Origin: a virus
DNA length: 44,549 bases
IMG/VR virus record: IMGVR_UViG_3300027362_000003
Direction: 5' to 3' (one strand)
Shown here: positions 19,862-44,549 of the stretch, one piece after another
How positions within the stretch are numbered: the stretch's first letter is position 1
Layout of the letters: the number at the start of each line of letters is the position of its first letter
Translations under genes and position numbers: made by a program
Notes under the pieces: generated by a model
The model's database searches: none
The model's input: only the letters and a program-made list of their open reading frames with translations
Told to the model about the DNA's origin: nothing

Positions 19862-20137
19862 CTAGAGGCTAGCTTCTTCGATGTGATTTTGCAATTTAGT
19901 TATCATTTGATCTCTAGTGGCCCGATTTGAGTATTTAATGCCCTTCTCGGTAGCGAACTTGCGTAAATCCTTTAGCCCCATTTCATGGATTTGCTGTAAA
20001 GCTTTACCCTCTATAGTTTCTTCATTGTTGATTATTTCGGGAATTACCTTCTTAGGGACTCCGCATTCCCTCATTTCATCATCATACTTCTTTGCATCAA
20101 CGTAATGACCATCTACTAGATAAACTTTATTAATCAT
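19862..20137 (-). CDS. Small protein with C-terminal SAP/Rho-N-like helix-extended-helix motif; candidate small terminase or DNA-binding partner of TerL
   Basis: I prefer the ATG at 20137 (MINKVYLVDG...), which lies 5 nt after AAGGAG. The C-terminus LKDLRKFATEKGIKYSNRATRDQMITKL resembles SAP/Rho-N motifs. It is adjacent to terL. Confidence 0.6.
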   Translation of the reverse strand: MINKVYLVDGHYVDAKKYDDEMRECGVPKKVIPEIINNEETIEGKALQQIHEMGLKDLRKFATEKGIKYSNRATRDQMITKLQNHIEEASL

Positions 20138-20362
20138 AATTCTCCTTGGCATAAAGTAGAAATACCTCACTCCGAGCGATAATACAATAGAAGCCCTCGA
20201 ATAAACAAAATTACTCAAGTATTTCTATATCTATTCTCTGGGTAAGAAGGGTCCGATCCCCAAATGCGTTAAATGTACTTGGGGGGACTACCCTCTTAGA
20301 TAGAACATAAAATCATGATATATAGATAGGAGATTATTTTGTGATTATAGATAGATATATCA

Positions 20363-20385
20363 AGGGTATTATACTATAATACCCT
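20363..20385. repeat. 23-bp perfect palindrome AGGGTATTATA-C-TATAATACCCT
   Basis: The arms at 20363-20373 and 20375-20385 are exact reverse complements. It lies in the non-coding gap upstream of the packaging genes. Confidence 0.9.
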
Positions 20386-20398
20386 GATATTGTATTGA

Positions 20399-20423
20399 TA
20401 TAATGTAAAGACTTTACATTATA
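20399..20423. promoter_or_regulatory. 25-bp perfect palindrome TATAATGTAAAG-A-CTTTACATTATA overlapping the -10 box and predicted start of the adjacent promoter (operator-like)
   Basis: The arms at 20399-20410 and 20412-20423 are exact reverse complements. Confidence 0.6.
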
Positions 20424-20445
20424 ACTCTGATTCTAGTTTGGTCAA
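20418..20445 (-). promoter_or_regulatory. Sigma70-type promoter TTGACC-N16-TATAAT reading toward the packaging and structural operon
   Basis: The minus strand reads TTGACCaaactagaatcagagtTATAAT. The TAA stop of the RHH gene lies inside the -10 hexamer. Confidence 0.45.
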
Positions 20446-20610
20446 CGCTTCTCTTAATTCTTTAATTCTCTTTAATTTAATATCTTTAACAGTTTGACCT
20501 TTGAGTAATATCTGAATACCTTTGCTCATGCTACCATTCCCTAACAATGCTATCAATTCCCTTTGCTGAGGTGTTACCCTAGTGGATATTGTTATTTTTG
20601 TTATTTTCAT
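20419..20610 (-). CDS. Ribbon-helix-helix (Arc/CopG-like) DNA-binding protein
   Basis: 63 aa. The N-terminal beta-strand-like KITISTRVTPQQRELIALLG is followed by helices. Confidence 0.6.
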   Translation of the reverse strand: MKITKITISTRVTPQQRELIALLGNGSMSKGIQILLKGQTVKDIKLKRIKELREALTKLESEL

Positions 20611-20816
20611 TTGATATATCCCTCAAGTAAATAGTGGTGAATATTCAATCCAGTACAATAATATATATCATCGTTTGGCTCATGTTCTTTACATTCCCCC
20701 GATATATAGAATTTAATTCCAGTATTAAATCCAATACTAGGCATTGTAAAGTAAAGTCCAATTAAAAATAAAACAATGCAACCAATAACAAAAATAAATC
20801 TCTTTACATAAAACAT
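20607..20816 (-). CDS. Small membrane protein
   Basis: 69 aa with a GGGGGA SD 4 nt before the ATG. It has one strong TM segment (FIFVIGCIVLFLIGLYF). Confidence 0.6.
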   Translation of the reverse strand: MFYVKRFIFVIGCIVLFLIGLYFTMPSIGFNTGIKFYISGECKEHEPNDDIYYCTGLNIHHYLLEGYIK

Positions 20817-20860
20817 AAAATCCCCCGTTTATGATTGACTGTATAAGTCAATCGGTTATT

Positions 20861-20915
20861 AAATTAAAAACAGTTTACACAATGGATTAAATTAAGTCAA
20901 CCCATTGTGTAAACT
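20861..20915 (-). terminator. Intrinsic terminator after the lipoprotein gene (14-bp perfect stem, 16-nt loop, T-rich tail)
   Basis: AGTTTACACAATGG (20872-20885) pairs with CCATTGTGTAAACT (20902-20915). On the minus strand the stem is followed by GTTTTTAATTT. The hairpin starts 5 nt after the stop at 20921. Confidence 0.5.
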
Positions 20916-20920
20916 TTACA

Positions 20921-21301
20921 CTATCGCTGATATTGATAGTATTGTATCGGTGTTATATCACTATATGCATTGTATTTTGAGATTGTACAATATCGGTTAT
21001 ATGCAGATTCTAGGAATTGTGCAATACAACTAGGGTATTTATTGTTTTGTTCAACCATCAAACTACCACAATGTTTATATGCAATTCTATCAATGCAATT
21101 GCATATAAGTTGACCTTGTAAACTATCACAAGTATCAATCTCAATAACTGCCTTAGGTGATACCCATAAATCGGCCTCTTGATTTAAATCAATTAAATCA
21201 GCATTATTTTTATGGCCACAACCTGTTAAAAATAAAACACTTAATAAACTCAATAAAACAATACTAGTACAAAATTTAAAAACCACTTCAAATAAATTCA
21301 T
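20921..21301 (-). CDS. Cys-rich lipoprotein
   Basis: It has a signal peptide with a classic lipobox (LFLTGC), multiple Cys in the mature part, and a GGGGGA SD. Confidence 0.7.
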   Translation of the reverse strand: MNLFEVVFKFCTSIVLLSLLSVLFLTGCGHKNNADLIDLNQEADLWVSPKAVIEIDTCDSLQGQLICNCIDRIAYKHCGSLMVEQNNKYPSCIAQFLESAYNRYCTISKYNAYSDITPIQYYQYQR

Positions 21302-21310
21302 ATATCCCCC

Positions 21311-21342
21311 GTTTAAAAATATCCCCTCAATTATTTGAGGGG
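21311..21342 (-). terminator. Intrinsic terminator hairpin CCCCTCAA-ttat-TTGAGGGG with T-rich flanks on both strands
   Basis: 8-bp GC-rich stem at 21323-21330 and 21335-21342. The minus-strand tail is ATATTTTTAAAC. It lies 18 nt after the stop at 21360. Confidence 0.55.
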
Positions 21343-21359
21343 ATTTTAATTTAATTTAA

Positions 21360-21779
21360 TTATTGGTTATTTACCAATTGTGTTAAGTCCTCATGTTTTG
21401 TATTCCAATTGTTTTTAATATCCAATGCTGATAGAACTTTGTAATATCCTTTGTGGGTATTACTGTAAATTCTATATTCTTTTCCGTTTACCAATGTAAA
21501 TGCCATTTTATCACCCTGTTCTAAAACATCTCGGTGAGTTAAATACAATCTATCTCCACTACCTGTAAAGATGGTATAAGACTTATACCCTTTGATTGTA
21601 CTTGATTTACTCACCACAAAACAATAAGACTCAACTACACTACAACCAATTAAATTACCACTAGTCAATTTTTGTGCCATTGGTTGTTTTTTTTGTGGCA
21701 TTACTTGACTAATGGTCATTGCAACCATTTGTGCCATCTGTTGCATTTGAACTTCACTAAACCCTTGAACTTTGCTCAT
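21360..21779 (-). CDS. Hypothetical protein
   Basis: 139-aa ORF with a GGAG SD upstream of the ATG at 21779. Confidence 0.65.
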   Translation of the reverse strand: MSKVQGFSEVQMQQMAQMVAMTISQVMPQKKQPMAQKLTSGNLIGCSVVESYCFVVSKSSTIKGYKSYTIFTGSGDRLYLTHRDVLEQGDKMAFTLVNGKEYRIYSNTHKGYYKVLSALDIKNNWNTKHEDLTQLVNNQ

Positions 21780-21956
21780 AAAATACTCCGTTTTTTTCTT
21801 TGCATTATTGCATCGAATTGAGCGGACTTTACACTACAATTTTTTTTTGTGCAACACAATTTGTGCAACCATGTATTTTTTACAATCCGCTCAAAAAACC
21901 CACAATAATGTAAATTTTACAATTCAAGCTATCCTGTAAATTTTACTCATATAAAC

Positions 21957-22002
21957 TTTACACTATAAATTTTACCCTATAATTTTTACACTATAAATTT
22001 TA
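21957..22002. repeat. Two exact copies of the 18-mer TTTACACTATAAATTTTA, 28 bp apart
   Basis: The copies are at 21957-21974 and 21985-22002. TGTAAATTTTAC is also duplicated nearby at 21909-21920 and 21935-21946. Confidence 0.9.
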
Positions 22003-22033
22003 TATCTATATATTTTATAGGCTATAACCAATA

Positions 22034-22061
22034 ACTATAGACTATAGACTATAGACTATAA
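22034..22061. repeat. Tandem heptamer array ACTATAG x3 plus one imperfect copy
   Basis: The sequence reads directly as actatag actatag actatag actataa. Confidence 0.9.
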
Positions 22062-22210
22062 CTATATAGATAGATCAATATAAGGACCGTTTTTATGTAT
22101 AGTGTCAAGGAATTTGAAGCTATTAGAAGCCATTAGAAAGCATTATTTAGGCTAGTCCTTATTCTTTATAGGACCGATTTTGGGAATATTTAGGTATTTG
22201 GATTTTAGGC

Positions 22211-22262
22211 GAAAAAAAACCTACTATGGGATAAACGGTGTATTTAAATTCCCATAGTAGGT
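22211..22262 (-). terminator. Strong intrinsic terminator closing the Ubl-conjugation cassette
   Basis: 12-bp perfect stem, ACCTACTATGGG at 22219-22230 and CCCATAGTAGGT at 22251-22262. On the minus strand it is followed by a run of 7-8 T. It starts 18 nt after the E1-like stop codon. Confidence 0.65.
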
Positions 22263-22280
22263 CTAACAGAAGTTTACTTG

Positions 22281-22949
22281 CTAAGATAAGTAGACATTCG
22301 TTACTTTATAATATGCAGAGTCTAGTTTTTTGGCAAGGATATTTTTAAATTCCCTTACCATATAGCCCCCTGCTATTATAGAACAATATCCTGTACTCTT
22401 AGCGGTGCAAGGCACTCTATCTATATCTTCAGAATTATAATTTAATGCAGTATCTAAATAGTCTTTCATGGAATTAGGACCGACAGTATATACACTCAAT
22501 TCTTCAGCCCCCATTCTAGATTCAATAATCCATGAATCAGGTAACCAATTTTTAAAGTGTTTAGCTACTGCTTTCCTAGTTGCCATATTATCAACACAAA
22601 CAAAATAATAGGTACTTTGAGTGCCATATATACTTATGGCCTTACTACTTTCCCATTTACATTGATTTGCTACTACTTTACAGCCTGTTCCTATTTCCCA
22701 TAGTTTTTTCTGTAATATCTGTGCTTTGTTAAATCCAATATCTATTGTCCTAAATCCTTGGCAACTTATATTTTCAGCACTAACTTCATCATTGTCCCAT
22801 ATAACCATATTGCTAACGCCTAATCTAACTAGCCATTCAGCAGTAGCAGTACCAATACTGCCACAACCTATTACATGGACCATAATATCTTCAGGAACAT
22901 CAATTATATCCCTATGCCTAGCAAACATTTCTGATCTAGATACCCTCAT
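22281..22949 (-). CDS. ThiF/MoeB-family E1-like adenylyltransferase
   Basis: Rossmann motif VIGCGSIGTATAEWLVRLGV is followed by IWDNDEVSAENISCQGF and CVDNMATRKAV, the hallmark ThiF/E1 pattern. A Cys pair (PCTAKSTGYC) lies near the C-terminus. Confidence 0.8.
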   Translation of the reverse strand: MRVSRSEMFARHRDIIDVPEDIMVHVIGCGSIGTATAEWLVRLGVSNMVIWDNDEVSAENISCQGFRTIDIGFNKAQILQKKLWEIGTGCKVVANQCKWESSKAISIYGTQSTYYFVCVDNMATRKAVAKHFKNWLPDSWIIESRMGAEELSVYTVGPNSMKDYLDTALNYNSEDIDRVPCTAKSTGYCSIIAGGYMVREFKNILAKKLDSAYYKVTNVYLS

Positions 22950-23808
22950 ACATTCCCCCCATAGTATACTGATTTTGATTTATTGGAGTGCCTTCATCTA
23001 GTTCAACCATATAATCCATTAAATCATCTACTGTTTCAGGTAAAGACCTAGTGAAATTTATATAGCTTTCTAGACCATCTCTAATATGTACTTGGCTAGC
23101 CCCTTCTTTAACTGTTAAATCCATTAATTGTCTAAGTTGATTTTTTTCTTTCTTAGGTAGAAACTTAAAAACTTCAGGTAATGTAACAAAACTAGGTTTT
23201 TCATCTACTAGTTTGGTTATATCAGTTTCAAATTTAAAGGATTTATCTTCGGTTGGCTTGTGTCTAACATCGGCCCATTTTATCCCTTTCTTATCTAGAA
23301 CAGTAGCAACCACTTCAGGCCGTTTATATTTCTCAAATTCACTATTCCATAACTCTACTGCAACACTATTTAGAATAGGTCTTATTACCACTTCTACATT
23401 AGGGATAAACACTCTAGGTCTACCATCTTTAGGAGCTTGATAGTAGCTACCTAACATTTCCCCTTTATCGTTAAATACGATAGCACATATCCAACCAGCC
23501 CCTCCAGTTTCCACTATGGTATCTATATCAGTACTGCTCCAAAAAACACCCATTGTAGGGTGAGTATGAATCCAACATCTTAAATTGTGTCTAGTGGACC
23601 AATTTGTATTTCGCAGTTCTTGTAATTTCTCAGCATCAATACTTGTACTAGCACTAGTTCCACCACTATCTAATAGGTGAAATTTGTTAATTACTAGCAA
23701 TTCGTCCATTACTTCTACTTCTCCAAATCCTGATAACTCTTTAGGCGTGGCCTTTTTCATAAAATATTTTATTTTTTCATGAACATCAGGCAAAACTACT
23801 ATTTTCAT
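22936..23808 (-). CDS. JAB/MPN (JAMM) metallopeptidase with ~140-aa C-terminal extension
   Basis: Conserved Glu context ELSGFGEVEV, plus an exact JAMM motif H-T-H-x7-S-x2-D (WIHTHPTMGVFWSSTD, nt 23527-23568). GGAGG SD lies 6 nt before the ATG. Confidence 0.85.
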   Translation of the reverse strand: MKIVVLPDVHEKIKYFMKKATPKELSGFGEVEVMDELLVINKFHLLDSGGTSASTSIDAEKLQELRNTNWSTRHNLRCWIHTHPTMGVFWSSTDIDTIVETGGAGWICAIVFNDKGEMLGSYYQAPKDGRPRVFIPNVEVVIRPILNSVAVELWNSEFEKYKRPEVVATVLDKKGIKWADVRHKPTEDKSFKFETDITKLVDEKPSFVTLPEVFKFLPKKEKNQLRQLMDLTVKEGASQVHIRDGLESYINFTRSLPETVDDLMDYMVELDEGTPINQNQYTMGGMYEGI

Positions 23809-25214
23809 TCTATACCTCCGTTTTCTTCAGTTGATGTATCAAACATAGCCCAATTTACTGGACTAATAGGTAATATAGGTTCATCTATATATACTGTTTC
23901 TTCGTCTACTATTTCTTCTTCTTCATCACTATATAATTCCTCATCATGGACCTCTATATTAGGTTCAATTCCTGCATTATCTCTAATGGCAATCGCCCTA
24001 AGTAACTCTATAGTGTCTTTTATGGAATCAAATGGCAGTTTGCTTAAATCCTGTCTAGAAAATATAGCTTCTAATGTAGTAGCACTTATTCCTTCATGGG
24101 ATTCACCTAAATAAGTGGCTTTTTTGTCGTACATTGGAACAGTATATAAGGCTACTTTGATTCCCCTAAGCAACTTGTTTATTCTAATGTAAGGCGTTCC
24201 ATTTATAGGAGCGGTGGTTAGAAGGGTATCTACATTGATCAAATATGTAGCTATATCGCCTTCTCTTTTCTCACCTTTACTATCTATAGAGGGAGCAATT
24301 GAACCAAAACATAAATCATGGCTGTTACTTACATAAGGGTGAAACTTATTATCGAATATATGGTTACAAAATAGCGGATAAACTCGGCATCTTTCCCTTT
24401 GAGTAGTTATATCCAACACTATAATAACGGCCCCTAAATTGTATATTTTCTGGTTGTTATTAGGTGATGGGACATAAACTTTAGGTTTTATCCATCTTAT
24501 AAGATGTTTGTGATTTGCCATTGGACCTATATATATCCAACCTCTCTTATCCATTTCAGCTTTTGCCCTATCTAGATTCTCACATAAATCACTAAACCAT
24601 TTATCCCTAGCTTCTGCTTCAGTTTCAGTTAATTGCTTTTCTAGAATCTTTTCCAACTTATCTTTATAGGCATTTATTTCAGCATCGGTTTTAGATATCA
24701 TGGCGGTAAAGTGAACTATCTCTCTTTCAGAACTTTTTATATTCTCATCTAGATTGTCCAGTTCTTGTTTATGTCTAGCTAGAATACTTTCCCTACTTAA
24801 GGTATCGTTAAATAAAAAGTTAGTTTCATTTTCTAAAGACCTTGCTGAATCCCTTCTACTGTTTCTCAAGAACTCTAATTTCTCTCTAATAGGGTCGGTT
24901 ATTTCCCTAGAAAAACATTCCATTATTTCAGGAGTTTTTTCTAAATCCTCTTTAGGTAAAACTAAGTCTTTAATGTTTTGCATTTCTAAAATAGCTTCGG
25001 TTATATCCCCTCTACTTAGGATTGTTGCTCTACCTATAGATCCAAAATTAGGAAAGAATTTAACTTCATAAAGCCAATTCATTATTCTACATTTGTTGGC
25101 CAAGTATTGTATTGATTCGCTATTGTCTTTAAATAACTTGTTTCTAGCTTTTAAGGCTTCTCTAACAGTTATATTAGATAGGTGCGAAATGGACCTTCTT
25201 CTACTTCTACTCAT
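23805..25214 (-). CDS. E2 (UBC)-like protein: N-terminal domain and charged coiled-coil-like region, UBC-like core, acidic tail
   Basis: aa ~255-305 read YNLGAVIIVLDITTQRERCRVYPLFCNHIFDNKFHPYVSNSHDLCFGSI. This matches the UBC signature (beta-meander, YP, HPxV flap, catalytic Cys about 10 residues later). The Cys302 codon is at 24309-24311. Confidence 0.65.
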   Translation of the reverse strand: MSRSRRRSISHLSNITVREALKARNKLFKDNSESIQYLANKCRIMNWLYEVKFFPNFGSIGRATILSRGDITEAILEMQNIKDLVLPKEDLEKTPEIMECFSREITDPIREKLEFLRNSRRDSARSLENETNFLFNDTLSRESILARHKQELDNLDENIKSSEREIVHFTAMISKTDAEINAYKDKLEKILEKQLTETEAEARDKWFSDLCENLDRAKAEMDKRGWIYIGPMANHKHLIRWIKPKVYVPSPNNNQKIYNLGAVIIVLDITTQRERCRVYPLFCNHIFDNKFHPYVSNSHDLCFGSIAPSIDSKGEKREGDIATYLINVDTLLTTAPINGTPYIRINKLLRGIKVALYTVPMYDKKATYLGESHEGISATTLEAIFSRQDLSKLPFDSIKDTIELLRAIAIRDNAGIEPNIEVHDEELYSDEEEEIVDEETVYIDEPILPISPVNWAMFDTSTEENGGIE

Positions 25215-25368
25215 CTTTTACCCCGTTTTTAAATAGAGTTTCCTTAAGCCACTCTAAATCTTCTATGTTATTTGCCATTTCCTGTTTAATTTCACTATCT
25301 ACAAATTCCTGATAGTGGGCCAAATCTTCAATGGCCCTAGTTAGTCTTTCTCTAATTTCTTCATTCAT
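25207..25368 (-). CDS. Unlisted 53-aa acidic helical ORF between the Ubl and E2-like genes
   Basis: MNEEIRERLTRAIEDLAHYQEFVDSEIKQEMANNIEDLEWLKETLFKNGVKDE. GGAG lies 6 nt before the ATG at 25368. Its stop overlaps the E2-like start by 8 nt. It is below the 60-aa cutoff of the ORF track. Confidence 0.5.
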   Translation of the reverse strand: MNEEIRERLTRAIEDLAHYQEFVDSEIKQEMANNIEDLEWLKETLFKNGVKDE

Positions 25369-25423
25369 TTTTCACTCCGTTTTAAAATAAAAGGGGATAT
25401 AATGATATATCCCCTAGTGTTAT

Positions 25424-25630
25424 TTAGATTCCACCATCTTTCTTATTGGCAAAATCTACTTCATCTTTATGGGCTACTACTGTTTCCATAGTAGCAGGAC
25501 GACCATTTACCGAAGGTAAAAAAGTCCCCTCTAATCCCATAGCTTCATAAACTTGCTTTACAGTAGCACCATCAGCTACTTCAAAAGCCTCTAAATCTCC
25601 ACCAGTAACAGTACCAAATACTTTAATCAT
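25424..25630 (-). CDS. ThiS/MoaD-like beta-grasp ubiquitin-like protein ending in Gly-Gly-Ile
   Basis: 68 aa. The pattern MIKVFG...EVADGATVKQVYEAMGL......VNGRPA......DEVDF.....GG is that of ThiS/MoaD/Ub-like proteins. The GG is at aa 66-67, followed by one residue. A GGAG SD is present. Confidence 0.8.
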   Translation of the reverse strand: MIKVFGTVTGGDLEAFEVADGATVKQVYEAMGLEGTFLPSVNGRPATMETVVAHKDEVDFANKKDGGI

Positions 25631-25774
25631 AACAGAAACTCCTATTTAAAATGGATAAAGCGTTATTGCGTTATCCCTACATTAGTTTTAAAGTTATATA
25701 ATTGTTCTTGAGCGTTAACATATTCTGTACAAATTTCTCTTTTCTCTTCATAAGACATAGGGTAAATATTCACC

Positions 25775-26071
25775 ATGCTATTTACACAATTACCTACTTT
25801 CAATTTAAAAAGCCAAAATAAAATGATTCCCATAAAAAATCTCCAATTATTAGAAAGTGTTTACACAAAATTTGAATCGACAAAATATCTCAGCGTAAAG
25901 TCAATGGCAACACAAAAATTGAAAGTTAACGCAAAAAATCAAAAAAGTCAATCTTTTCAACGCTTTACGACTTTACGAAATGCTGTAAAAAATGTATATA
26001 GAAGAGGGATTTTTGCATCAAAAAAATGGCACAAAAAGTTAATAAATTGCATCATAAATCGGAGGAAATAG
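25775..26071 (+). CDS. Doubtful Lys-rich ORF in the AT-rich divergent control region
   Basis: 98-aa ORF with no SD and low-complexity, basic composition. It contains promoter-like elements and a tandem CTTTACGA x2. It may be a leader or promoter region rather than a gene. Confidence 0.25.
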   Translation: MLFTQLPTFNLKSQNKMIPIKNLQLLESVYTKFESTKYLSVKSMATQKLKVNAKNQKSQSFQRFTTLRNAVKNVYRRGIFASKKWHKKLINCIINRRK

Positions 26072-26074
26072 AAT

Positions 26075-26329
26075 ATGGATACCATAACTTGTAACAAATG
26101 TTTTAAAGCTTATCCGCTATCAAAATATGATCTAAAGGATAATGGTAGATTGGTAAGACTATGCTGTAAACAATGCCATAGTGATAGGGTATATGAAGCC
26201 CAAAATAAGAGGAAATTAGAAAAATATCCTAATATTTATAGCTATTGCATCAAATGTAAACATATCTATAATAAGAAGCATCAAAGCTGTCCTAACTGTA
26301 AAGTAGTAAATATAACGGATTGTCTATGA
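26075..26329 (+). CDS. Double zinc-ribbon protein
   Basis: 84 aa with four CxxC pairs (CNKC, CKQC, CIKC, CPNC). A GGAGGA SD lies upstream. Confidence 0.75.
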   Translation: MDTITCNKCFKAYPLSKYDLKDNGRLVRLCCKQCHSDRVYEAQNKRKLEKYPNIYSYCIKCKHIYNKKHQSCPNCKVVNITDCL

Positions 26330-41981: not shown

Positions 41982-44549
41982 TTATTTTAAATCCTCCACG
42001 CCAGTGATTAGATATTTTCCTCCACTATATAATACTGTGAAAACAACAGTAGAACCTGCTTTTGTCGTTGTTATCTTAGTTCCTCCAGGCCAATAGGTGG
42101 TTCCTGCCCAAGCAAGAGTTTGAGCATTGGTAGTAGTAATTACTATGTTAATTATTCGTCCATTAACACCACCAGAAAGTGTGATAGTATAGGTAGAAGC
42201 AGCTCCTGTTATAGAATAATCAAAGATATGATTTGTTGCCATATCTATGCTTATTGAAGTTGAAGGAGTTGCGGTTATATACCCCATGTCTACACAACTT
42301 AAAGTAGTACCATTACCTGTAACTCTCTGAGAACCTAAACAGGTAGGAATTACAGCAGTATCAGCTTGAAAGGTTACATTGGTACCATCTGATTTTAATA
42401 CCAACCCATTACTTCCCACCGTAGTAGGAACTGTCCATCCCGTTTCAGATAAGACCTTGCTGGCTCCAGCAGCTACCACCACCCTATTAGCCGTACTAAA
42501 ATTAGTAGGCTTGGTAACCAAGGCAAGTGCGGCTATACCAGAATCCACCAGAGTTTTAGATCCATTGGAGTTCATCACGTTTCCAGTAATAGCGGTAGCC
42601 CCCATAGTAGCTACGTTGGCTACAGGGATTCCAGCATCCGACAATAATCTACTTGCAGTAGAAGTTTGTATCAGGTTTCCTGCACCACCATTGGCTGACA
42701 TGGTAGGAACGTTTGCAGCAAGGATTAATGAGTCCTGAATTATCTTTCCAGTGGTACCATTAAAAGAAGCTAGATTTCCAGAGACTACCGTACCTGCTGG
42801 ACCTTGAACATCTAAAGCTCCTTGAACGGAATCTGCTTGCCAAGTAGCTACTCCTGTAGATGCCATCTTAAGGGCGTATCCAACTGTTCCGTCTGTGGTT
42901 GGAACAGTATAAGAAGTTTCAGTTAAAAGCCTATTAGCACCAGCAGCTAGAGCCACTCTATTAGCGGCAGTAAAGGTACCAGCCTTAACCACAACCGTTG
43001 AAGCTAGTACTCCAGAGTCTGCTAGTACCTTTCCATTGGCATTGTTGAACATAGCTATATCGCCCACTGTAGCAGATCCAGGTCCTGTTACATCCCCTCC
43101 TGAGGCTGTAGACCATGATGTAAGACCAGCCCCATTAGTAGTTAAAACCTGTCCCGTTGTTCCTCTATCGTTTAAAGGAAGTTGGTAATAAAGAGAGGTA
43201 GAACCTATCCTTACTCCACTTGTACTTATATCCAAAATCCTAGAAAGAGAACCTACTGTAGCACCTTGAGTAGTTCCACTCATGGCCTGAAAAGATAGAG
43301 AGTTATTACTTTTAGTTAGTATAAATTGATTACCAGAAGTAACCGAACTAAAGATAAGTCCATCTGCTGGGTTCCTATAACAATCAAAACAAAGTTCTCC
43401 TGCCCCTGCAACCTGAGCACCTATTGATAAAGCAGGGTATCCTAAAGAAGTATTGGTAAATTCTATATAGGGGGCATTTGCTAGAGTTCCACGACCAACA
43501 ATCTGTAAAGGAGCAGAACCTCTGCTTCCTGCTGTAGCATCCCCGATTTCAACTCGGTCATTAATAGCATCTACAGAAAAAGTGGTTGTATCTGCTATTA
43601 ACCCAACAACCCCTGACATATTATTTAAATTGTCAATTAATACACCAGAGTTTTGAATTACTTTTCCAGTAGCTAAATCAAATCTGGCAATAGCATTATC
43701 AGTTGAAGTTCCAGGACCATTCACATTACCTGTACCAGCAGGTCCTTGAATACCTTGGGGTCCAGTGGCTCCTGTAGCACCTGTAGCTCCAGTATCTCCT
43801 TTAACACCTTGGGCTCCAGTGAGTCCTGTAGGACCTATTGGTCCTTGGATACCTTGAATACCTTGGGCACCAGTAGCACCCGTAGCACCTGGAGCTCCAG
43901 TATCTCCAACAGGACCTTGGATACCAGGAATACCCTGGGCACCAGTGGCACCTGTAGCTCCAGTGGAACCTGGTAAACCTTGAATACCTTGATCCCCTTT
44001 ATCCCCTTTTATACCTTGTACACCTTGGGCTCCAGTAGCACCTGGGGCTCCAGTAGCCCCAGTGGAACCTGTATCTCCTTTAATCCCTTGAATACCTTGG
44101 GCTCCTTGCACACCCGTAGCACCAGTATCTCCTTTAGGTCCTTGAGGTCCTGTGGGTCCTGCAATACCTGGAGTACCCTGGGCTCCTGTAGGTCCAGGAG
44201 AACCAGATTGCCAGGCTATTATGGACATATAGGAAGTATCTAGAGTGGGATGGGTTAAATTATTCTTCCCCATAGCATAGAAGGTCTGCCCGATAACAGG
44301 GACATAAGAGAAAGTACAAACAGCTAATCCTCCTTGTATACTTATATTGTATATACTGCACATCTTCTGAATTCTAGGGAGGGCTTTAAAATCAGTGGTT
44401 AGATCGAAAGCAGTAGGATCTACTCCTATACCAGCATCATAATTAGTATTGTCATAAGGAGTAGCTAAAGTAACGGTGATTAAACAATTATCAGTAATGG
44501 TAAAACTGGTTCCATTAGCAGTATTGGAGTTTACTATATAACAATTCCC
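41982..44549 (-). CDS. 3' portion of the junction-spanning ~1012-aa collagen-like fibre/adhesin gene (starts at 598)
   Basis: The frame is open from 44549 down to the TAA at 41982-41984. The ATG at 44363 given in the track is internal. It has a collagen tract, tandem ~100-aa repeat modules and a C-terminal beta-rich domain. Confidence 0.85.
43728..44207 (-). repeat. Collagen-like G-X-Y coding repeat tract (about 53 triplets, Thr/Ala/Gln-rich)
   Basis: The translated tract is [31 protein letters not shown]...[12 protein letters not shown]. Confidence 0.9.
44423..44549. repeat. Terminal direct repeat, copy 2 (identical to 1..127)
   Basis: Established by direct comparison with the window start. 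Confidence 0.95.

Follow-up and report, generated by a model that had tools for sequence, protein, structure and literature searches.

The stretch of viral DNA analysed here, referred to below as the window, is the whole of IMG/VR record IMGVR_UViG_3300027362_000003 (44,549 nt), and the region under study, at positions 22211–25630, carries the predicted components of a ubiquitin-like (Ubl) protein conjugation cassette. Five minus-strand open reading frames (ORFs) occupy positions 22281–25630 and overlap, by their coordinates, by 8, 4 and 14 nt, exactly as described in the original prediction, which was made from the sequence alone. The first of them in the direction of transcription (25424..25630, minus strand) encodes a 68-aa protein ending in KKDGGI, predicted to be the precursor of a ThiS-like beta-grasp modifier, the Ubl. 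Directly 3′ of its stop codon lies a hairpin with a 10-bp stem and a T-run (25392..25415, minus strand), which is terminator-like in the scan. Next comes a 53-aa ORF (25207..25368, minus strand) that is predicted to be helical, has a GGAG ribosome-binding site and shares 8 nt with the start of the following gene. That gene (23805..25214, minus strand) encodes a 469-aa E2-like protein with a UBC-like core by family profiles, and is followed by genes for a 290-aa JAB/JAMM metallopeptidase (22936..23808, minus strand) and for a 222-aa E1 of the ThiF/MoeB type with one adenylation domain (22281..22949, minus strand). The unit ends in a strong intrinsic terminator (22211..22262, minus strand), as had been predicted, with a 13-bp stem (arms ACCTACTATGGGA/TCCCATAGTAGGT), a 14-nt loop and T8; it was read directly from the sequence, having been overlooked by the automatic scan because of its long loop. 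Judged from sequence, the region probably encodes a complete minimal Ubl conjugation cascade that performs conjugation chemistry.

The E1 matches the Pfam ThiF family with an E-value of 3.2e-18 (66.2 bits, cut-off 28.1) and contains the motifs GCGSIG and DNDEVSAEN, which are the GxGxxG and DxDxV..N motifs quoted in the original prediction. Its best PDB match is ThiF (1.8e-9), followed by UBA5, TcdA, MccB, Uba1 and Cap2 (about 1e-5), and among PADLOC models it matches only the E1 part of the Cap2 (E1–E2) models of the cyclic oligonucleotide-based antiphage signalling system (CBASS), down to 2e-14. The protein aligns end to end with relatives of 215–235 aa, and with residues 28–185 of ThiF. It consists of a single adenylation domain, with no CxxC zinc-site pairs and no separate or inserted CYS domain. 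Residues R11, GxGxxG (G28/G30/G33), D52xD54, N60, Q64, K75, D120 and R125 are invariant among its relatives. Also invariant is Cys181, within the motif CTAKST, which aligns to Cys184 of E. coli ThiF (hhalign 98.5%).

The JAB/JAMM protein comprises a JAMM domain (residues 1 to about 135) and a C-terminal part of about 155 aa, and carries the expected HxH-x7-S-xx-D motif as H81-T-H83-x7-S91-x2-D94. Together with E24 and S26, these His, Ser and Asp residues are invariant in the four phage JABs compared. Single-sequence matches to family models fall under their thresholds, with an E-value of 0.003 and a score of 17.9 against Pfam Prok-JAB (cut-off 25) and of 3.6e-4 against the PADLOC JAB, where the models are of the Cap3 type. 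In the PDB, all of its best matches are to JAMM deubiquitinases (AMSH-LP, Sst2 and Rpn11), aligned over HxH...S..D, with weak E-values (best 0.0035). Blastp connects the protein to the JABs of two related loci, L009 (1.5e-18) and L011 (3.5e-13), and to a JAB from crAss-like phages (2.7e-8).

The Ubl shares 33% identity with that of locus L011, which ends in KGGL, and in some 50 unique members of the family at related loci the C-terminus is GG or GA followed by 0–20 residues. By itself, the 68-aa protein reaches an E-value of 0.0035 and a score of 18.3 against Pfam ThiS, under the cut-off of 22.5. The family profile matches ThiS/SAMP2/TtuB in hhalign at 96.3% (P=1.7e-9), aligned up to the terminal GG, and its score of 43.1 compares with 7.5±1.5 for column-shuffled nulls. 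The same profile gives 91% with MoaD-like proteins and 40% with ubiquitin/NEDD8.

One alternative is a sulfur-carrier pathway, in which the JAB would trim a ThiS-like protein, the ThiF-like enzyme would adenylate it, and the resulting thiocarboxylate would donate sulfur to the modification of a cofactor, tRNA or DNA, with the Cys-containing 469-aa protein as a persulfide relay. The affinity of the Ubl family for ThiS/SAMP2/TtuB rather than ubiquitin agrees with such a pathway, as do the best PDB match of the E1 and the alignment of Cys181 with ThiF Cys184, and triads of ThiS/MoaD, JAB and E1 are documented in sulfur assimilation (Iyer 2006, PMC1779556). No sulfurtransferase or acceptor gene (rhodanese, the cysteine desulfurase IscS, ThiG/H, MoaE, a CysM-like protein, or the PP-loop ATPases TtuA/NcsA) was found, however, among the cassette proteins or among representatives of the largest neighbour clusters at viral and cellular loci. 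The cassette also conserves a protein with a UBC-type HPx–Cys site, and its homologues lie in phage replication modules and integrative elements rather than in biosynthetic operons for thiamine, molybdopterin or cysteine; homologues consistently placed in such pathways were what the original prediction had named as evidence against itself. A sulfur-carrier role is therefore considered improbable.

The 469-aa E2-like protein is laid out as an N-terminal helical or coiled-coil region (residues 1 to about 215), a UBC-like core (about 225–360) and an acidic tail ending in ENGGIE. The core contains the predicted YP...FHPYVSNSHDLCFG, with His292-Pro-Tyr, Cys302, Gly304 and Pro341-Tyr342, and Cys302 is the candidate catalytic cysteine. 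The family consensus is HPHIxxxGxiCxG...PY, and the motif reads FHPYVSNSHDLCFGS in the window, HVHPNISTYGSICWGN in the positional homologue at locus L011 and EHPHINQQMEVCLGN in that at L009. The spacing of 10 between His292 and Cys302 is that between His75 and Cys85 of UBE2D2. By blastp, the L011 homologue matches that of L009 at 9e-7 and the window protein at 0.029. Searched by word index and exhaustively among proteins, the 469-aa protein had only itself and its own fragment as credible matches; two internally repetitive proteins that also matched were judged spurious.

The E2 assignment is carried by profiles of the family. The L009 homologue alone matches Pfam UQ_con at E=0.14 over model positions 71–135 of 140, a model that has no match to the window protein. 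In the PDB, a five-sequence profile ranks UBC E2s first, aligned in register (E=0.3–1.2). In hhalign, five sequences align to four canonical UBCs with P=1.3e-4, and a 50-sequence alignment matches UBC with P=2.2e-5 (76%) over 74 columns that reach into the beta-sheet. Although the hhalign probabilities (50–76%) lie under the level usually accepted for database searches, the observed scores of 31.8 and 34.2 stand about 10 standard deviations (SD) above column-shuffle nulls, which have a mean of 10–11 (SD 2) and a maximum of 22.7 in 750 trials. Across the 50 sequences, Cys302 is present in 50, Gly304 in 49 and Pro293 in 43, while position 292 is occupied by His in 30, Phe in 12 and Asn in 8, counts that are biased upward because sequences were chosen with a motif regular expression. 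Family members range from about 300 to 655 aa, with a conserved core and widely varying appended domains. The E2 assignment is well supported by sequence and unconfirmed by structure.

Two further observations concern the tails of these proteins. In four related loci (L040:2621-4393, L049:3435-4772, L050:3435-4772 and L068:2977-4254), the UBC-like core is fused to a long Cys-rich tail with many CxxC pairs, which may represent a zinc-finger or RING-like target-recognition (E3-like) module. In the window, the tail ...STEENGGIE (23805-23830) echoes the ...KKDGGI terminus of the Ubl; the homologues at L009 and L011 do not share it, and it may be a coincidence or a lineage-specific site of self-processing or auto-modification. 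A role of the ENGGIE terminus as a substrate of the JAB or the E1 was rejected on the same ground, since relatives do not conserve the tail.

The 469-aa protein might instead not be an E2 at all but a chance resemblance or degenerate remnant, leaving only the ThiF–JAB pair functional, for example as a peptidase that undoes Ubl or cGAS conjugation by the Bil or type II CBASS systems of the host. The orphan sequence of the window protein, ten related viral loci that show only JAB and E1, and the identity of the best PADLOC models (CBASS Cap2 for the E1 and Cap3-type for the JAB) would all fit this explanation. Against it, the same position is occupied in most loci by a protein in which Cys-x-Gly is invariant and HPx precedes it, the match of the UBC profile far exceeds its null, the Ubl gene is conserved with its GG terminus, and most of the loci with only JAB and E1 are cut by contig ends. 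A remnant is accordingly regarded as very improbable.

Several results nonetheless weigh against a conjugation cascade. Taken alone, the window E2-like protein has no family match in Pfam, the PDB or PADLOC, and the assignment of its family rests on profiles for which the 50-sequence alignment was partly selected with a motif regular expression, favouring the motif columns. An AlphaFold2 (AF2) model of the E2 core from a seven-sequence alignment is unusable, with a mean predicted local distance difference test score (pLDDT) of 37, so that the UBC fold originally proposed for this protein is backed by the in-register profile match but gains nothing from structure prediction. The beta-grasp fold proposed for the 68-aa protein is in a similar position: the family profile favours it, but the single-sequence AF2 model, with a beta-beta-alpha-beta-beta order, has a pLDDT of 52 and leaves the fold unconfirmed, and Foldseek finds nothing significant for it in the PDB (E>=2.5). 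The top Foldseek matches, themselves non-significant, are almost all ubiquitin-like beta-grasp proteins (ISG15, ubiquitin, SAMP2 and SUMO). In sequence, the nearer relatives are on the sulfur-carrier side, ThiS rather than ubiquitin for the Ubl and ThiF rather than Uba1 for the E1. The E1 family also lacks the canonical Arg of the NLxRQ ATP-binding motif of ThiF/MoeB; the corresponding residue 63 is Cys, Asn, Thr, Pro or Gly across relatives. Lastly, promoter-like matches are at background (35 found, 36 expected). The start of the unit at a divergent control region, as first proposed, could for this reason not be established, and the Ubl gene is immediately preceded by a 56-aa minus-strand ORF (25663-25833), which is annotated as a gene on some related contigs and replaced on others by an overlapping 98-aa plus-strand ORF.

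The gene order of the unit recurs in related loci. The closest relatives of the E1 are 30–37% identical and lie on contigs with the same gene layout. Used alone as a query, the window E1 found no relatives in IMG/VR, whereas a scan with a five-sequence E1 alignment identified 402 IMG/VR viral contigs that encode a related E1. Gene orders were called with hidden Markov models built from alignments made in this analysis and iterated on the ORFs of each locus, in a set of 88 non-redundant loci comprising the window, loci L006–L012 and 80 loci fetched from the 402 contigs. The order Ubl-E2-JAB-E1 is present in 54 of the 88, two of which have two E2 hits; the remaining loci show E2-JAB-E1 (16), JAB-E1 (10), E1 alone (7, mostly at contig ends) or Ubl-JAB-E1 (1). 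Among 185,579 species genomes of cellular organisms the cassette is rare, with just 57 matching loci (L093–L149), and 36 of these have the full cassette order. Because the same order recurs in both sets, the four-gene arrangement is far beyond chance. This recurrence, together with the evidence for each component, bears out the predicted phage-encoded set of Ubl, E2-like, JAB and E1 genes in Bil-like order, and the original reading is supported in its core; the database search for the same synteny that it proposed does recover related loci, albeit with four genes in place of five.

The 53-aa ORF is the part of the predicted five-gene cassette that did not hold up as a component of the module. 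It is called as a gene on related contigs of the same phage and has no significant family match in library scans. Most relatives have no room for it, and the spacer between the Ubl and E2 genes is filled by this ORF only in the present phage lineage. The ORF is thus best described, on comparison of the loci, as lineage-specific and outside the conserved four-gene module.

Spacing within the module is itself patterned. Median gaps in the 54 complete cassettes are 107.5 nt between Ubl and E2, 0.5 nt between E2 and JAB, and −4 nt between JAB and E1, and a terminator-like hairpin with a T-run is present in 11 of the 41 unique Ubl–E2 spacers, that of the window (25392-25415) included. The spacer, here with its hairpin and T-run, would set the Ubl gene apart from the translationally coupled E2-JAB-E1 genes and could yield an excess of the substrate over the enzymes. 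The hairpin may serve as an attenuator or as a stabiliser of the mRNA 3′-end that produces this excess of Ubl.

Downstream co-directional neighbours at the viral loci encode ERF recombinases (25), DnaB-like helicases (10), reverse transcriptases (9), AAA_24 ATPases (7) and D5 primase-helicases (6), and the cassette is usually found among early or middle genes of replication and recombination. The nine reverse transcriptases, at L082:6960-8345 and eight other viral loci, belong to the RVT_1 family, and each is among the first three genes after the E1. The cellular loci with a CTAKST-type E1 are nearly all from metagenome-assembled genomes (MAGs) of Planctomycetota (Phycisphaerae, Gemmatales and Planctomycetaceae), one Gemmatales MAG having four copies. 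Genes for integrases, DUF2958 proteins, DNA ligases and reverse transcriptases of group II introns lie beside them, a setting that suggests integrated mobile elements. In five of these Planctomycetota loci (L095:9447-10634, L098:5441-6919, L107:8605-9252, L117:10132-10773 and L142:6877-7521), another E1-like ORF with a weaker match is found 2.6–4.5 kb downstream of the cassette.

More distant and partial versions occur in other phages. In crAss-like phages the gene order is primase, a protein with an L7/L12 domain, E2-like, JAB, ThiF and, further along, UDG; the JAB and E1 are more distant relatives of those in the window, and the E2 match is at the level of the motif. No Ubl gene was detected beside this E2-JAB-E1 trio. 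The crAss-type E2-like gene is present in 45 phage records, including the cultured phages crAss001 and DAC15, where the annotation of these genes goes no further than ‘ThiF’, ‘metalloprotease’ and ‘hypothetical protein’. In crAss-like phage cr126_1, the protein encoded just upstream of the E2-like gene (L006:263-1189) matches the ribosomal L7/L12 C-terminal domain in Pfam at 5e-12. Jumbo phages of Xanthomonas and Erwinia encode an 892-aa protein with IHPHM...GSLCLGS directly upstream of a related E1, and no JAB was found in these loci with the JAB profile built here. No single phage gene family was found to co-occur with the cassette across its podovirus-like, crAss-like, jumbo phage and integrative-element carriers. 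Far from being peculiar to one phage, the cassette belongs to a large family that phages and mobile elements carry.

One of the closest known systems is Bil (types I and II), an antiviral ubiquitination operon of bacteria, the gene order of which (BilABCD) has been defined (10.1101/2023.09.26.559546). Both have four separate genes in the identical order Ubl-E2-JAB-E1, a Ubl whose conserved C-terminal Gly is masked by a few residues for the JAB to remove (a removal inferred here), and no E3, the E2 being the presumed target selector. The components themselves differ. BilD is a multidomain E1 with IAD, AAD and CYS domains (PMC11601596), whereas the window E1 has 222 aa and one ThiF domain. In BilB, an E2 of the CEHH type, the conserved His comes after the Cys, while the phage E2 has its HPx before the Cys. 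A direct hhalign comparison of the phage E2 family with BilB of E. aridi gives 0.3% and has little power, as canonical UBC against BilB also reaches only 1.7%. Bil also resides in bacterial defence islands, and the present cassette in a phage genome, with relatives in viral contigs and integrative elements. Since its E1 has a single adenylation domain and its E2 the classical HPx–Cys motif, the cassette appears to share the Bil gene order without being a member of Bil; the match in order that was originally noted stands.

Class 6d of Iyer, Burroughs and Aravind (2006), described from bacterial genomes as a small Ubl, an alpha-helical protein, E2-like, JAB and E1-like genes, resembles the phage cassette in its standalone ThiS-like Ubl with a C-terminal Gly and in encoding E2-like, JAB and E1-like proteins separately. 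A short, helical ORF also follows the Ubl gene in the window, ahead of that for the E2; this 53-aa ORF is not conserved in relatives and was for that reason rejected as the counterpart of the alpha-helical protein. Compared by description, the 6d E2 has a downstream and no upstream His, and the 6d JAB carries a JAB-N domain. Type II CBASS shares with the cassette a single-adenylation-domain E1 related to ThiF and Atg7 (Cap2 being the best PADLOC match) and a JAB partner. It differs in that E1 and E2 are fused in Cap2, the ‘Ubl’ is the C-terminus of the CD-NTase and an effector gene is present, whereas the phage genes are unfused and no CD-NTase or effector gene was detected among the cassette proteins. 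Bub of types I and II (6E, DUF6527) likewise has a Ubl, an E2-like protein, a JAB and a single-domain E1 with no CYS domain. Bub proteins are fused (Ubl-E2, JAB-E1 or E2-E1), with a Ser/His E2, a Tyr in the E1 crossover loop and, always, a DUF6527 serine protease (PMC11601596). By contrast, the phage cassette is unfused, its E2 has a conserved Cys and its E1 has Cys181, and no match to DUF6527 was found among its proteins.

Archaeal sampylation (SAMP1/2-UbaA-HvJAMM1) and the bacterial ThiS-ThiF and TtuB-TtuC systems have in common with the cassette a ThiS/MoaD-like modifier with GG, a minimal ThiF/MoeB-type E1 and a JAMM peptidase. Those systems lack an E2 and serve as sulfur carriers too, while the phage cassette retains a UBC-like E2 and has no sulfur-acceptor enzymes among the neighbours checked. 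The putative cassette combines a SAMP-like or ThiS-like modifier and a minimal E1 with a UBC-like E2. Phages are already known to encode a ThiS-like Ubl with a terminal Gly and a JAB peptidase in the TAPI–TAPK (JAB-NlpC) system of lambdoid and T1 phages, which is encoded within the tail gene cluster, lacks an E1 and an E2 and has its Ubl fused to another domain (PMC1779556). The original prediction named no described complete set on a phage like this one, and no description of a phage-borne Ubl-E2-JAB-E1 system was found in the searched literature, which took in few subscription papers.

The predicted reaction sequence would begin with a Ubl precursor ending in GG-I, from which one residue must be removed to expose Gly-Gly, a step that the JAMM peptidase could perform. 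The E1, probably a homodimer like ThiF and MoeB, would then adenylate the Ubl C-terminus with ATP. From there, the Ubl would probably be relayed through Cys181 in the crossover loop of the E1, pass as a thioester to Cys302 of the E2 and be transferred onto lysines of target proteins. Because no E3 is encoded, the variable non-catalytic regions of the E2, here the coiled coil and the acidic tail, would select the targets. The JAMM peptidase may also reverse the modification.

As to its role, the cassette may act early in infection on host proteins, in host takeover or counter-defence, rather than in virion assembly. This possibility is tentatively favoured because of the early or middle neighbours in DNA metabolism, the spread over unrelated phages and elements, the absence of a partner gene inherited with the cassette, and the variable E2 appendages.

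The same chemistry could otherwise be directed, as in Bil, at rival phages, with superinfection exclusion or competition between elements achieved by tagging structural proteins such as tail fibres and so blocking assembly. Bil conjugates its Ubl to the central tail fibres of phages (10.1101/2023.09.04.556158; 10.1101/2023.09.26.559546), and its gene order is that of the cassette. Protection of the host would make sense for the integrated Planctomycetota elements that carry the cassette beside integrases, and variable E2 appendages fit an arms race. This role is nevertheless considered unlikely: the window phage and many of its relatives, crAss-like and jumbo phages included, look virulent, with no integrase found and a short time in which to exclude competitors, and neither the E1 nor the E2 is of the Bil type.

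The targets could also be proteins of the phage itself, for example those of replication, recombination or the virion, which would be matured or regulated in the manner of Ubl and JAB in lambda tail assembly. Lambdoid and T1-like phages do use the TAPI Ubl and the TAPK JAB for that purpose (PMC1779556), the window cassette lies directly upstream of, and co-directional with, packaging and structural genes, and at many loci the cassette borders ERF or primase genes. However, a strong terminator separates the cassette from those downstream genes and the lambda system operates with neither E1 nor E2. Nor is a co-inherited target apparent, since the carriers have no one phage gene family in common alongside the cassette, and action on the phage’s own proteins is likewise judged unlikely.

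A broader view is conceivable, though doubtful at present, in which phages and integrative elements carry a widespread and unrecognised class of ubiquitination-like systems used offensively early in infection against host proteins, either of defence or of the central machinery, with distant partial versions in crAss-like and jumbo phages. Such a class would be a viral mirror image of bacterial Bil and of the manipulation of ubiquitin by eukaryotic viruses. Bacterial Ubl conjugation has so far been characterised as anti-phage immunity (Bil and type II CBASS) or has no known role (Bub); an active module in these phages would mean that bacterial viruses also tag proteins, adding a new layer to phage–host conflict and a new class of post-translational modification in infection. 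The remote branch in the cultured Bacteroides crAss-like phages crAss001 and DAC15 makes the idea testable in systems relevant to the human gut. With a 222-aa E1 and a standalone HPx–Cys E2, the cascade would be among the simplest complete E1–E2 cascades known, useful for work on mechanism and evolution and possibly as a compact protein-ligation tool. The eukaryote-like HPN motif in virus-borne E2s could also bear on the origin of classical E2 enzymes.

The window as a whole is a phage genome that encodes a T7-type portal, TerL, a major head protein, a family-A DNA polymerase, an SNF2-type helicase, a tail protein and two collagen-like tail-fibre proteins. No integrase was found among its scanned ORFs, in keeping with the lytic podovirus genome suggested in the original prediction. 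Comparison of the window at the nucleotide level with deposited phages, near and distant, gave no match. Exact-protein look-up places the same phage on many metagenome contigs, the longest of which are 44,545 and 44,563 bp, and for this reason the window is probably a complete genome. Its tail-fibre genes (595-2037 and 41982-44363) are paralogous and lie at opposite ends of the window, as would fit a complete genome that is circularly permuted. GC content is 0.30–0.34 over the cassette and its flanking small ORFs (positions 20000-26000), against about 0.42 in the rest of the window, which suggests that this island is an accessory or horizontally acquired region.

Minor features flank the cassette on both sides. 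Upstream of it and on the opposite strand, an 84-aa ORF (26075-26329, plus strand) has four CxxC pairs and is zinc-ribbon-like. Downstream, between small ORFs, there are palindromic hairpins with flanking T-runs at 21321-21344, 20872-20915 and 20363-20385, the first of which scores as a terminator on both strands. A 126-aa ORF in the same interval (20921-21301, minus strand) has a lipoprotein-type signal sequence (...LFLTGCGHKN), and could encode a spanin or a surface-exclusion lipoprotein.

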